NCBI GenBank assembly: GCA_947626355.1
Contig: CANQRV010000005.1
Span: 7,573 to 71,572 of the forward strand
Reading direction: 5' to 3'
Source: an uncultured Muribaculaceae bacterium
Lineage (GTDB): Bacteria; Bacteroidota; Bacteroidia; Bacteroidales; Muribaculaceae
DNA length: 64,000 bases
Part shown: positions 25,914 to 30,320 of the stretch, piece by piece
How the letters are laid out: each line of letters starts with the position of its first letter
Position numbering within the stretch: position 1 is the first letter of the stretch
Program-made: the position numbers and the translations under genes
Notes under the pieces: model-generated
The model's input: the letters and a program-made list of their open reading frames with translations, nothing else
Database searches by the model: none
What the model was told of the DNA's origin: nothing

Positions 25914-27113
25914 ATGAAGACACTCACCACCAAGACCGGCATTACGGTCAGATTCACCTTTTTAGTAATATATCTTGCGGCGCTTAGCGCGTTCGGCTCG
26001 TTTGTCAACGACATGTATGTGCCTTCGCTCCCCTCGATGACCGGCTATTTCCACTGCTCGGTGCCGACAGTGCAGCTCGGCCTTACATTCGGAATGATAG
26101 GCCTGGGCCTGGGACAGATCCTGCTTGGCCCGTTCAGCGACAAATACGGACGCAAGCCGATCCTGGTGGCCTCTGTGCTGGTGTTCATAGCCGGAGCGGT
26201 GGCCTCCCTGTTCTCCCCCACCATCCATTTCTTCCTCGGGTGTCGGCTCGTGCAGGGCATAGGGGCGTCGGGAGGGTATTTCCTGGCGCGCAGCATCCCG
26301 ACCGACTTCTTCCAGGGGCGGCAGCTGGCGAAGACCATGGCCATCGTGGGCGCCATCAACGGGTTTGCGCCGGCCAGCGCGCCGGTGATCGGCGGGTTTG
26401 TGTCGCAGCATTTCGACTGGAAAGGCGTGTTTGTGGTGCTGACGGCGTTTGCCGTCATTCTGCTGGCGTTCTCGCCGATGCTGAAGGAGAGCCTGCCGGA
26501 GGCTAAGCTCGAACAGGGAAGCGTATGGAAAGCCTTCAAGGCCTACGGGCCGCTGCTTTGCGACCGGCCGTTCATGACCCATGTGCTGCTTAAAGGCGCG
26601 GCGCTGGGACTGCTGTTCGCCTACATATCATCGGCGCCGTTCATCATGCAGACCCATTACGGATTCCGGCAGGATGTGTTCGGCTGCATCATGGGAGCCA
26701 ACTCCATCATGGTGGCCACGGGATCGATGCTGGCGCTGAGGTTCAAGCCGTTGAAGCGGGCTGCCTTCACCGGAGGGGTCTGCGTGGCTGCGAGCGTGGC
26801 GCTGGAGAGCGTGGCGCTCCTTTGCTTCGACTCGTTCTGGCTCTACGAGCTGCTGCTTCTTCCCATCCTCTTCTCGTCAGGGATGATCTTCACGGCGGGC
26901 AACACGCTGGCGATGAACGAGGGCCGGAGCGACGCGGGCGATGCGTCGGCCATCCTCGGTGTGGCCGGCTACGCATTCGGAGCGGTCGTGGCGCCCCTTG
27001 TGGGCCGTGGCAATATCATGCATTCCACGGCATGGGTATTCATCGGCCTGGCTGTGATCATCGTCGTCTTCTCGCTGCTCACGCGCCGAGTCCCGGCCGA
27101 CCTGGAGAAATAG
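25914..27113 (+). CDS. Bcr/CflA-family MFS drug efflux transporter
   Basis: DMYVPSLP, GPFSDKYGRKP, CRLVQGIG and APVIGG motifs; about 12 TM segments. Confidence 0.9.
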   Translation: MKTLTTKTGITVRFTFLVIYLAALSAFGSFVNDMYVPSLPSMTGYFHCSVPTVQLGLTFGMIGLGLGQILLGPFSDKYGRKPILVASVLVFIAGAVASLFSPTIHFFLGCRLVQGIGASGGYFLARSIPTDFFQGRQLAKTMAIVGAINGFAPASAPVIGGFVSQHFDWKGVFVVLTAFAVILLAFSPMLKESLPEAKLEQGSVWKAFKAYGPLLCDRPFMTHVLLKGAALGLLFAYISSAPFIMQTHYGFRQDVFGCIMGANSIMVATGSMLALRFKPLKRAAFTGGVCVAASVALESVALLCFDSFWLYELLLLPILFSSGMIFTAGNTLAMNEGRSDAGDASAILGVAGYAFGAVVAPLVGRGNIMHSTAWVFIGLAVIIVVFSLLTRRVPADLEK

Positions 27114-27178
27114 GCATGGCGGCGGCAACGCCCGGAATAGCGTCGTCGCCGTCAAGCAACGCAACGGATTGTGAGGAA

Positions 27179-27622
27179 TCACTCCTTCGGTGACTGGGAT
27201 AGGCGCGACTGGCGGTTCTCCACTATGTAGGATACCACGAGGCCCAGGCCGCCGAACAGGAACATGGAGGCCGCGAATATCACGCCGTATATGCCGTCGG
27301 TGAAGTCCCACTGGTCGAGGATGCGCGGATTGAGCGCCACATCTATGAGGATGCCAGCGAGCATGCCGAGACCAATTCCCATGAGCGCGAGGGCCCAGCG
27401 CAGGGAGGTGAAGCGTCCTATTCCTGACGATTGGAAATCGAGAAGCGACCGCTGCCTCTGAAGGCGCCGGGCGCATGTTTCGGATGCGTCGGCAGGGATC
27501 TCGTTCATCTTCTCTATAAAGAGGATGCGCTCGCGGCGCGTGGCGTAAAGCTGAAAAATCCTGTAGATGGTCTCGCCGATGATGAAGAGCACCAGAGGCA
27601 CCATGATGAAATCCATATTCAT
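27179..27622 (-). CDS. DUF6249-like membrane protein
   Basis: N-terminal TM, RRERILFIEK, SLRWALALMGIGLG and MFLFGGLGLVVSY motifs; divergent from ECF sigma. Confidence 0.7.
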   Translation of the reverse strand: MNMDFIMVPLVLFIIGETIYRIFQLYATRRERILFIEKMNEIPADASETCARRLQRQRSLLDFQSSGIGRFTSLRWALALMGIGLGMLAGILIDVALNPRILDQWDFTDGIYGVIFAASMFLFGGLGLVVSYIVENRQSRLSQSPKE

Positions 27623-27674
27623 AATGTGATGTGTTTTATGGGTTGATGAAATGATTTTGTTAATTTTGTAACCG

Positions 27675-27704
27675 TTTGACGCATGGCGGGTCCCTGCGGT
27701 TACA
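27675..27704 (-). promoter_or_regulatory. ECF-type promoter driving the DUF6249 gene
   Basis: Minus strand reads TGTAACCGCA-gggacccgccatg-CGTCAAA (TGTAAC-N17-CGTC). Confidence 0.75.
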
Positions 27705-27737
27705 CCACCGCGGGAAAAATATTTTTCTTTTTTCACG

Positions 27738-27767
27738 TGTAACCGCATCCCCTCTCCTTCCGTCAAA
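27738..27767 (+). promoter_or_regulatory. ECF-type autoregulatory promoter of the sigma gene
   Basis: TGTAACCGCA-tcccctctccttc-CGTCAAA, ending 9 nt before the sigma ATG. Confidence 0.75.
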
Positions 27768-27776
27768 AATGGCGAC

Positions 27777-28376
27777 ATGACACTTTTCAACCTGACATCA
27801 CGCCGCTCCCGCCCCAGGCCGGACTCCGACAGCGAGCTTCTCGCCTCGGTGGCCGCCACAGGCGACACCATAGCCTTCGAGACCCTTGTGGAGAAGTATT
27901 CCGCAAGGGTATTCGCTCTGGTTGTGCGCGTCACGGGCTCGGCGCCCGATGCCGAGGATATCACCCAGGAGATCATGATGCAGGTCTACAGCCGCGCCGC
28001 CTCCTTCACGGGAGGCTCGGCCGTGGGCACCTGGATATTCCGCATCGCCTACAATATGGCAATCGACCACGAGCGGCGCCTCGCCAGCCGCCGCAGGCGC
28101 CTGGGCGACGAGACTCCGCTCACTGCCGCCGAGGCGTCGCTCCAGACGTCGGGTGAGGATGAGGCCGACCCGCGCGTAGACCTGCTGGTGGAAGCGATGC
28201 AGGCCCTTCCTCCCGACGACCGAGCGCTTCTGACGTTATACTATTATGACTCTCGCCCCGTTGCAGAGATAGCGGAAATCATGCACCTGTCGCAGTCGAA
28301 CGTGAAGGTGCGTCTCATGCGCCTCCGCCGTCGCCTCAAGGAGGCGATCACCTCCGGGCTGACGCCCCAAACATGA
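27777..28376 (+). CDS. ECF-subfamily RNA polymerase sigma factor
   Basis: Region 2 (DAEDITQE, TWIFRIAYN) and region 4 (IAEIMHLSQSNVKVRLMRLR) only. Confidence 0.92.
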   Translation: MTLFNLTSRRSRPRPDSDSELLASVAATGDTIAFETLVEKYSARVFALVVRVTGSAPDAEDITQEIMMQVYSRAASFTGGSAVGTWIFRIAYNMAIDHERRLASRRRRLGDETPLTAAEASLQTSGEDEADPRVDLLVEAMQALPPDDRALLTLYYYDSRPVAEIAEIMHLSQSNVKVRLMRLRRRLKEAITSGLTPQT

Positions 28377-28846
28377 AAGGACTTTTTATGGAAAAGAGAA
28401 TCATACCCGGCACATCGAAAGCCGGAAATACAGATACCGACGCCAGGCTCGACGCCCTGATCGCCCGCTCGGTGTCGCGCCTCGACAGCTCGCCGGGCCT
28501 TGCCCCCGGATTCGCGCGGCGCACCGCCACCCTGGCGGCGGCCCGGGCGCGTCGGGAGCGTGAGCGCGAGGAGCGGCGGGAGAGACTGATGGCACGCGTG
28601 GTGCCCGTGGCATGTGTAGTGGCGGCCGTCGTGGCTCTCGTCATCGTGATGCCGGAGCTGCCCGGAGCCCTGGCCATGTCGGTGGCAACGCCGCTCAGGA
28701 GCATACTGTCAGGCATGGAGGTCTCACCCTACGCACTTCGGCTGGTCGGCACCGTGGCCGTGGTCGGTGCGATGCTCGCCGGGCTCAACGCCGTGTTGCG
28801 GCGTCATGCCTCACACCGGACACAGGGCGCAGCACAGCATACCTGA
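28373..28846 (+). CDS. Putative membrane anti-sigma factor
   Basis: ATGA overlap with the sigma stop; short cytoplasmic N-terminus, Arg/Glu-rich helix and two hydrophobic segments. Confidence 0.55.
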   Translation: MKGLFMEKRIIPGTSKAGNTDTDARLDALIARSVSRLDSSPGLAPGFARRTATLAAARARREREREERRERLMARVVPVACVVAAVVALVIVMPELPGALAMSVATPLRSILSGMEVSPYALRLVGTVAVVGAMLAGLNAVLRRHASHRTQGAAQHT

Positions 28847-28940
28847 TAGCTCTCCTGCGCTTACCCTTCTCCCCTTTTCCAATCCCTTTTATTGGACATC
28901 TGAAAACAATTGGCTAATTTTGCAGATATAAAAGGGACTT

Positions 28941-30320
28941 GTGATGACTCAGACAATAAAATCGGCCGACAGAATGCAGGAACTCGGCACACTCCCCGTG
29001 TGGCGTCTGCTCCTAAAATACAGTATACCCGCCGTGGTGGGCACTGTCGTCATGGCCATCTACAACATCATAGACTCGATAGTGATCGGCCATGCCATCC
29101 CCGACCCCAACGTGGTGGCCGGCATCGCCGTCACCTTTCCCGTGATGAACATCTCCACGGCCTTCGGCATGCTGGTAGGCATCGGCGCGGCCACCCGCAT
29201 CTCGATTGTATTCGGGCAGAACGACAGGCGCATGGCGGGGCTGGTACTCGGCAACTCGGTGCAGCTCACCATCCTCATGGGCATCTTCTACGTGACGATG
29301 TTCTCGCTCTTCCTCGACGACATACTGCTGCTGTTCGGAGCCTCCCCCCACTCGCTGCCCTACGCCAGGGAGTTTCTGCTGTGGGTGCTTCCGGGCATGG
29401 TGCTGATGAACCTCACCTTCTCCTACAACAACGTGATGCGCGCCACCGGCTATCCGGGCAAGGCGATGTGGACCAACCTCATCGGCGCCTTCCTCAACGC
29501 AGGCCTCGCGCCACTCTTCCTCTTCGGCTTCAAGTGGGGGATACGCGGCGCCGCGATCGCCACCGACATCTCGATGGTGGTCACCGCCTTCTTCGTCATG
29601 TGGCATTTCTTCCAGAAGAAGAGCCTGCTGCATTTCGAGCGCGACACCTTCCGCCTCAACTGGCGGGTGATCAAGTCGATACTCTACATCGGCATGTCGC
29701 CCTTCCTCATCAACCTCACCGGAGCCTCGGTCAATGCCATAATCAACAACTCGCTGCTTCATTACGGCGGCGACAACGCCATCGCCGCCGTGGTGGTCTT
29801 CAACCGGTTTGTCACCCTGTTCGTGATGGTGGTGCTCGGCATCTGCCAGGGCATGCAGCCGATCCTCGGCTACAACTACGGCTCGCGACGCCTCGGGCGC
29901 CTCTTCTCCACGCTGCGGCTGGCGGCCGGATGCGCCCTGGTGATCACCACCATAGGGAGCCTTGTCGGAGCGCTCAACGGCCGCTTCATAGCCTCGCTGT
30001 TCATGACCGACCCCACTCAGATCGACTGCGCCACCAACTGCCTGCGCATCACCACCGTGACCTTCTGGATGGTGGGATTCCAGATTGTCGGCACCAACTT
30101 CTTCCAGTCGCTCGGCATGGCGCTGAAGTCGGTGTTCCTGTCGCTCACGCGCCAGATCATCTTCATGATTCCGATGCTCTTCATCCTGCCGCCGCATTTC
30201 GGCCTCGACGGCGTGTGGGCCTCCTTCCCGGTGGCCGATTTCCTTGCCACCATCGTCACGGCCTTCATGCTCATGTGGCAGATACGCAAGATCAGACAAG
30301 AGCAAGCAGCTGCTCGATGA
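28941..30320 (+). CDS. MATE-family efflux transporter
   Basis: YNIIDSIVIG, GIRGAAIAT, GMQPILGYNYG and GVWASFPVAD motifs; TAATTTTG at 28915-28922 upstream. Confidence 0.92.
   Translation: MMTQTIKSADRMQELGTLPVWRLLLKYSIPAVVGTVVMAIYNIIDSIVIGHAIPDPNVVAGIAVTFPVMNISTAFGMLVGIGAATRISIVFGQNDRRMAGLVLGNSVQLTILMGIFYVTMFSLFLDDILLLFGASPHSLPYAREFLLWVLPGMVLMNLTFSYNNVMRATGYPGKAMWTNLIGAFLNAGLAPLFLFGFKWGIRGAAIATDISMVVTAFFVMWHFFQKKSLLHFERDTFRLNWRVIKSILYIGMSPFLINLTGASVNAIINNSLLHYGGDNAIAAVVVFNRFVTLFVMVVLGICQGMQPILGYNYGSRRLGRLFSTLRLAAGCALVITTIGSLVGALNGRFIASLFMTDPTQIDCATNCLRITTVTFWMVGFQIVGTNFFQSLGMALKSVFLSLTRQIIFMIPMLFILPPHFGLDGVWASFPVADFLATIVTAFMLMWQIRKIRQEQAAAR

Follow-up and report, generated by a model that had tools for sequence, protein, structure and literature searches.

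The extracytoplasmic function (ECF) sigma factors SigX, SigW and SigM of Bacillus subtilis, according to work of the Helmann laboratory, have promoters of the types TGTAAC-N17-CGAC, TGAAAC-N16-CGTA and TGCAAC-N17-CGTG. The sigM operon also has a small extra membrane protein, YhdK, which assists YhdL, the anti-sigma factor of SigM. The current work analyzes a three-gene module in a stretch of 64,000 nucleotides, here called the window, from an uncultured Muribaculaceae bacterium (assembly GCA_947626355.1, contig CANQRV010000005.1, positions 7,573 to 71,572 of the forward strand). The module consists of a gene for a membrane protein of the family DUF6249 and, divergent from it, the genes for an ECF sigma factor and for a putative anti-sigma protein with two transmembrane (TM) helices (the 2-TM protein). 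Comparison of orthologous loci indicates that the sigma factor very probably switches on itself and DUF6249 via the same conserved promoter.

In Bacteroidales, SigW-1 (BT1817) of Bacteroides thetaiotaomicron and PG1660 of Porphyromonas gingivalis have been assigned to the poorly characterised group ECF251, and BT1817 is co-regulated with an "associated transmembrane protein", BT1816, in one iModulon (PMC12596196). In P. gingivalis, PG1662 is annotated as a DUF6249 protein two locus tags from PG1660, with an ABC/TolC efflux cluster next in the table (PMC12094164). In Bacteroides fragilis, the DUF5056, DUF6249 and sigma genes lie together near clsB (bioRxiv 10.1101/2025.05.12.653583). None of these three sources describes a twin promoter, and DUF6249 is never treated in them as a target. 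The family search of the current work (Pfam PF19762) also matched in a B. thetaiotaomicron control genome.

Twin promoters between the DUF6249 and sigma genes

The DUF6249 gene (27622-27179, minus strand) and the sigma gene (27777-28376, plus strand) are separated by an intergenic region of 154 bp, in which the pattern TGTAACCGCA-N13-CGTCAAA stands back to back on both strands. The minus-strand copy (27704-27675, TGTAACCGCAGGGACCCGCCATGCGTCAAA) faces DUF6249, with a -35 element TGTAACC at 27704-27698 and a -10 element CGTCAAA at 27681-27675. The plus-strand copy (27738-27767, TGTAACCGCATCCCCTCTCCTTCCGTCAAA) faces the sigma operon, with the same elements at 27738-27744 and 27761-27767. Both sites thus have the form TGTAACC-N16-CGTCAAA, and an A/T-rich spacer (27705-27737, GAAAAATATTTTTCTTTTTT) lies between the two -35 elements. 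The pair had been pointed out in an earlier reading of the window from its letters alone (the sequence-only reading), all coordinates of which proved correct. The plus-strand site combines the features of autoregulated ECF promoters: AAC in the -35 element, CGT in the -10 element, a spacing of 16-17 nt, a position before the sigma factor's own operon, and conservation in orthologues.

If the usual ECF geometry applies, transcription of the sigma operon is predicted to start at about 27771-27775 (plus strand), leaving a 5' untranslated region (UTR) of about 2-6 nt, and transcription of DUF6249 at about 27668-27671 (minus strand), leaving a 5' UTR of about 46-49 nt. With its ATG only 12 nt past CGTC, the sigma gene is predicted to give a nearly leaderless mRNA. 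About 14 loci of the TGTAACC clades show a corresponding distance of 10-12 nt, as against 27-38 nt in the TGAAACC clade. In the latter, which pairs TGAAACC with GGTC (L138, L143-L145, L156, L158), the -35 boxes are 8-55 nt apart; with the sigma start 27-38 nt from the -10 element in this clade, the near-leaderless layout is clade-specific.

Conservation in orthologous loci

The best relative of the sigma factor in species-representative genomes was only 39% identical, and a large protein collection supplied relatives at 97%, 58-64% and 43-45% identity. The contigs of the 97%, 58-64% and 43% relatives (six proteins) all show the divergent arrangement, with DUF6249 facing the sigma gene and the 2-TM gene following it, and the genes flanking these six loci are unrelated. 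The pattern TGTAACC-N15/16-C(G/A)TC occurs on both strands in five independent orthologous loci (L105, L108, L110, L111 and L116), whose sigma factors are 43-64% identical to that of the window. It likewise occurs on both strands in L132 and L134, which were found via distant DUF6249 relatives and lie outside these identity figures, and the DUF6249-side promoter is conserved also in L086. Conservation of the motif in orthologous loci had been set beforehand as the test by which the sequence-only reading could be refuted; both promoters, at fixed spacing and with unconserved spacers, were present in all divergent loci examined.

Apart from the ATG, the intergenic alignment is invariant chiefly in the -35 and -10 boxes of both promoters and in the A/T tract that separates the promoters; within each promoter, the 15-16 nt from the -35 to the -10 box are unconserved. 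In the locus of the 97%-identical relative (L118), the spacer of the minus-strand promoter is rearranged and its boxes are intact. Conserved boxes with divergent spacers are the footprint expected of promoters. Between the -35 boxes, the orthologous loci (L105-L134) share with the window a conserved A-tract and then a T-tract (GAAAAAnATTTTTTC), symmetric to both promoters, and the gap between the boxes is 24-43 nt in the close clade. That this tract serves as a shared upstream element resembling an UP element is only a guess.

Co-variation of the two promoters and linkage across the phylum

PF19762 was found in 90 of 301 high-quality Bacteroidota genomes (about 30%) and in 70 of 144 genera, with two copies in only one genome. 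A profile built from the DUF6249 orthologues finds 662 clusters. Among 30 loci sampled across the phylum, 29 have an ECF sigma gene within 1.5 kb of DUF6249; the divergent layout is found in about 20 and the co-directional one, with DUF6249 preceding sigma, in 6. The promoters of these loci fall into clade-specific variants, both of the -35 element (TGTAACC, TGAAACC, TGCAACC, GGAAACC) and of the -10 element (CGTC, GGTC, AGTC, TGTC, CATC). Within a locus, however, the DUF6249-side and sigma-side promoters are almost always of the same variant (about 27 divergent loci), and the -35 elements agree in about 25 of 27 pairs by our own reading of the script table and the printed sequences. This pairwise co-variation is best explained by one locus-specific reader of both sites, most likely the adjacent sigma factor. 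Together with the conservation it gives good support to the proposal of the sequence-only reading that the twin boxes represent the recognition motif of this sigma factor, and we infer that both promoters depend on it.

Reading of both sites by a different ECF sigma factor of the cell would be cross-talk of a very improbable kind. AAC...CGT promoters are common to many ECF sigma factors, and a first look at the genome gave 17 candidate stretches resembling the sigma factor, which would leave room for such a reader. The promoter variant, however, tracks the locus across clades and is identical on both sides of a pair, the motif is present wherever the linked sigma factor is present, and the sigma factor is without a close paralogue in the genome (25% identity at best).

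Other gene orders point the same way as far as DUF6249 is concerned. A second subtype in the genus of the window is co-directional (DUF6249, sigma, 2-TM), with a single TGTCACC-N..-GTCTTATA promoter before DUF6249; of 24 congeneric genomes, the 11 with DUF6249 all have its sigma gene and the 13 without DUF6249 all lack it. A third order (sigma, 2-TM, DUF6249-like protein) was found in 45%-identical relatives, with TGTAAC-N16-CATCTAAA upstream of sigma. Two of three orphan DUF6249 genes, which have no adjacent sigma gene, are preceded by TGTAACC-N15/16-CGTC. DUF6249 thus follows an ECF-type promoter in whatever layout it is found. Such comparative evidence, including that from the orphan genes, gives good support to the further suggestion that DUF6249 is a direct target of the sigma factor.

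The divergent TGTAACC module of the window has no orthologue in the 24 congeneric genomes, 11 of which carry the co-directional TGTCACC subtype instead. This patchy distribution in the genus suggests replacement or horizontal transfer.

Rarity of the motif and search for a regulon

TGTAACCG occurs three times in the window, against 0.70 copies expected there, and each time in the sigma/DUF6249 intergenic region; a count of three was reached in 1 of 100 shuffles. The only exact matches to TGTAAC-N17-CGTC in the window are the two promoter sites. The scan with this pattern that had been suggested along with the sequence-only reading returned three matches in the whole genome (3.09 Mb), including both promoter sites, and GTAACC-N16-CGTC matched only these two. 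TGTAACC-N15-17-CGTCAAA occurs exactly twice in the genome, both times at this locus, against a chance expectation of about 0.016 matches per genome (arithmetic from base composition, for 14 specified bases and one spacing).

When up to two mismatches to TGTAACC-N15-17-CGTCAAA were allowed, the whole genome yielded no convincing further regulon member. Two sites with one mismatch were rejected as targets because they overlap start codons or ends of open reading frames. Sites with two mismatches were also rejected, as they lie inside open reading frames, are without the CGTC core, or stand before tpiA, which has its own housekeeping-type box. The generic sigma-70-type promoter and terminator scan is uninformative for Bacteroidota. 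As far as can be judged from the genome sequence, the circuit would control itself and DUF6249, and DUF6249 would be its only recognisable output in the genome.

The third box and the inverted repeats

A third TGTAACCG (27667-27674, plus strand) overlaps a TAATTTTG (27661-27668, plus strand, directed towards the sigma gene), as the earlier reading had claimed. TAATTTTG matches TAnnTTTG, the Bacteroidota housekeeping -7 box. The third TGTAACCG is unconserved, and orthologues show TGTACCTG, TGTACCGG, TGTAAGG or TGTATCTG at the same place; it is a lineage-specific coincidence. As a third ECF promoter it was rejected, there being no CGTC at the right distance and no conservation of the box. Four of the orthologous loci (L105, L108, L110 and L111) retain the overlapping TAnnTTTG box, as TAAGTTTG, and L116, L132 and L134 do not. 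At 27661-27668, TAATTTTG may be a basal housekeeping promoter for the sigma gene, with a leader of about 100 nt. Alternatively, what is conserved in the TAnnTTTG block may be the 5' end of the DUF6249 mRNA.

The TGTAACC boxes of the twin promoters form an inverted repeat (GGTTACA ... TGTAACC), and the third copy forms a second one with 27697-27704. The latter folds as a hairpin (-16.7 kcal/mol, z -2.1). The repeat at 27667-27704 was rejected as an RNA hairpin, for neither predicted transcript has both arms and it is unconserved.

Such symmetry would suit operator half-sites for a separate dimeric DNA-binding protein, in which case the boxes would not be -35 elements. This idea is hardly credible on the remaining evidence. 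From locus to locus the two -35 boxes stand anywhere between 8 and about 100 nt apart, yet each keeps a constant 15-16 nt to its own (C/G/A)GTC, and the -10-like element is conserved as strictly as the TGTAACC boxes. Moreover, single promoters of the same form precede co-directional operons without a partner box, the third copy containing TGTAACC is not conserved, and no other regulator gene is linked to the module. The boxes are better read as -35 elements of two promoters.

The three proteins

The sigma factor (199 amino acids) matches Sigma70_r2 with 52 bits, Sigma70_r4_2 with 57 bits and the sigma70-ECF model TIGR02937 with 109 bits (cut-off 42.9). It has only regions 2 and 4 and lies within the length range of about 170-220 amino acids, which places it among the ECF (group 4) sigma factors. 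None of the equivalog models was reached. Its closest relatives of solved structure are 6in7_B (deposited as sigma-H factor), SigW (5wuq_A, E 4e-15) and RpoE.

The gene that follows (28373-28846, plus strand) encodes the 2-TM protein of 157 amino acids, or 152 amino acids from an alternative start at 28388, and its start overlaps the sigma stop codon (ATGA, 28373-28376). Its N-terminus is short and cytoplasmic, its two TM helices enclose a small loop in the periplasm, and its C-terminus is basic (LRRH); this architecture recurs in the product of the gene after sigma at every locus looked at. In position, coupling through the ATGA overlap and membrane anchoring by two TM helices, it agrees with membrane anti-sigma factors. 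Searches of Pfam and NCBIfam gave no match, with no zf-HC2/RsrA-like, RskA, FecR or four-helix class I anti-sigma domain. An AlphaFold2 model (predicted local distance difference test, pLDDT, 70; 9 sequences) has about two cytoplasmic helices before the TM hairpin. Position, coupling and architecture, not homology, point to an anti-sigma role, and the protein may act like an anti-sigma factor while belonging to no known anti-sigma family.

The DUF6249 protein (147 amino acids) matches PF19762 with 38 bits (cut-off 33) over model positions 10-103 of 104. Three TM helices are predicted, within helices 4-41, 72-97 and 110-142. In the AlphaFold2 model (pLDDT 85, 121 sequences), a long first helix runs from TM1 into the conserved sequence RRERILxIEK and is followed by a helix of lower confidence and then by TM2 and TM3, which are glycine-rich. 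The RRERILxIEK helix past TM1 is the most conserved part of DUF6249. The basic residues beside TM1 suggest, by the positive-inside rule, that this helix is cytoplasmic. A search of the PDB with the model gave no fold match better than E 0.87, and word-based homologue searches with DUF6249 and the 2-TM protein returned almost nothing.

Some DUF6249 proteins (L082, L083) have an N-terminal extension before TM1 that resembles a signal peptide and reaches up to about 85 residues. This extension fits a family topology with the N-terminus outside.

Genes and signals around the module

The module is flanked by an MFS transporter gene (25914-27113, plus strand) and a MATE transporter gene (28941-30320, plus strand), and its GC content shows no anomaly. 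The MFS neighbourhood is non-syntenic within the genus, in which congeners were examined for adjacent MFS and MATE genes. A GC-rich hairpin, found by RNA folding, lies at 27114-27157 between the convergent MFS and DUF6249 genes. The folding of 27105-27190 gave -34 kcal/mol for the plus strand (z -3.0) and -30 kcal/mol for the minus strand (z -2.0); the plus strand has no T-run at the hairpin. The hairpin probably serves as a terminator in both directions and marks the end of the DUF6249 transcript.

A second exact TAATTTTG box is located at 28916-28923, 18 nt upstream of the start of the MATE gene (28941). It looks like a housekeeping promoter of the MATE gene itself, which need not belong to the sigma operon.

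In one distant relative, a gene for a 371-amino-acid protein of the thioredoxin/AhpC-TSA family (L132:2447-3562) lies 33 nt after DUF6249 on the same strand. The arrangement is a hint that the module can take on redox or envelope-thiol functions as cargo.

Proposed circuit and the role of DUF6249

The explanation that best accounts for these observations, and which we hold to be likely as a whole, is that the adjacent sigma factor reads both back-to-back ECF promoters in the 154-bp region, with the 2-TM protein as a minimal anti-sigma factor and DUF6249 as output. The plus-strand promoter would give positive autoregulation of the operon of sigma and the 2-TM protein by an almost leaderless transcript. 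The minus-strand promoter would drive DUF6249 as a single-gene unit with a leader of about 47 nt and an end at the hairpin terminator. The translationally coupled 2-TM protein most likely holds the sigma factor at the membrane; a signal from the envelope or membrane would release it, and sigma factor, inhibitor and DUF6249 would then rise together. DUF6249 itself may be an effector (a small glycine-rich stress protein with three TM helices), an accessory part of the switch, or both, because it is the only recognisable output in the genome.

Several points weigh against this explanation. Neither fold nor family searches point to a biochemical function for DUF6249; in the protein encoded after sigma no anti-sigma domain can be recognised, and its model, of moderate confidence, shows only about two cytoplasmic helices. 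The compared loci are phylogenetically related, and counts of concordance overstate the number of independent events; several independent classes of promoter variants exist, however, despite the shared ancestry. A regulon of the module and one small protein would be unusually small, and targets with weaker boxes may have been missed.

The sequence-only reading had offered DUF6249 as an envelope-stress effector or a second anti-sigma component, and the data cannot separate these two. In the second case, DUF6249 would be a third regulatory component, a co-anti-sigma factor or sensor acting with the 2-TM protein much as YhdK does with YhdL in B. subtilis. The three conserved genes would then form a signalling unit of three parts, whose true outputs would be genes added to the module or located elsewhere. 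This is possible, if rather unlikely. Co-occurrence of DUF6249 and the sigma factor is perfect in the genus and their linkage nearly universal; the same three genes stay together in three different orders; and co-directional DUF6249 genes overlap the sigma start codon (e.g. L087, L088, L089), as is typical of stoichiometric partners. Extra genes appended to the module vary, from the thioredoxin/AhpC-like gene in L132 to the ABC/TolC efflux cluster directly after P. gingivalis PG1662 (PMC12094164). The cytoplasmic part of the 2-TM protein is, in its model, apparently too small for a classical anti-sigma domain, and the most conserved part of DUF6249 is the presumably cytoplasmic helix past TM1. 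However, neither a cargo gene nor another promoter copy was detectable in the genome and its closest relatives, and a purely regulatory DUF6249 would leave the system without an output. A sigma-type promoter on DUF6249 also suits an effector equally well.

A stronger form of the same thought, which we likewise regard as rather unlikely, makes DUF6249 the obligatory third part of an undescribed split membrane switch, in which the 2-TM protein gives only a short sigma-binding helix. If it were true, the RRERxxxIEK helix and the glycine-rich TM helices of DUF6249 would complete or gate the anti-sigma complex and sense the state of the membrane, and sigma-dependent induction of DUF6249 would be negative feedback that resets the switch. 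A split switch with such feedback would explain why the module itself is the only detectable regulon.

With the sigma factor as reader of both promoters, the locus provides a regulatory assignment at the sequence level for a protein family otherwise without an assigned function, which reaches much-studied species such as B. thetaiotaomicron, P. gingivalis (PG1662) and B. fragilis. Because the module is common in Bacteroidota, it matters whether DUF6249 acts as effector or as third regulatory component. The intergenic region of each divergent locus examined gives the recognition motif of the linked ECF sigma factor, and such motifs offer a starting point for predicting regulons and for designing orthogonal promoter/sigma pairs in Bacteroides engineering. 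From the conserved spacing of 10-12 nt between CGTC and ATG, nearly leaderless sigma mRNAs are predicted as a class, in a phylum with unusual translation initiation.

Comparison with known systems

Within Bacteroidales, the module is like BT1817/BT1816 and PG1660 in combining an ECF sigma factor with a small membrane protein; no counterpart of the regulons reported for those systems (a PUL59 subset; oxidative-stress genes) was found here. DUF5056 proteins occupy, in the Bacteroides-type modules, the same place after the sigma gene as the 157-amino-acid protein of the window. Alignment suggests that their layout is also similar, with a short N-terminal helix, a TM hairpin and a basic tail, and the counterpart of the 2-TM protein in L082 matches DUF5056 (E 1.6e-11). 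The window's protein and its close orthologues, in contrast, miss the DUF5056 model, which only 1 of 11 aligned members matches.

The module resembles the SigX, SigW and SigM systems of B. subtilis in its bipartite AAC / CGT promoter with 16-17 nt spacing, its predicted positive autoregulation and the (here putative) membrane anti-sigma gene directly downstream of sigma. It differs from them in belonging to another phylum, with a sigma factor only distantly related, and in a putative anti-sigma protein without a zinc-binding or other recognisable domain and with almost no periplasmic part. Unlike the arrangement in the sigM operon, the small membrane partner here is DUF6249 on its own divergent promoter. 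The mechanism, an autoregulated ECF sigma factor with a divergent target, is ordinary and of the textbook kind, and the locus is a solid but rather ordinary case of a three-gene module that is widespread in Bacteroidota and has gone unstudied.

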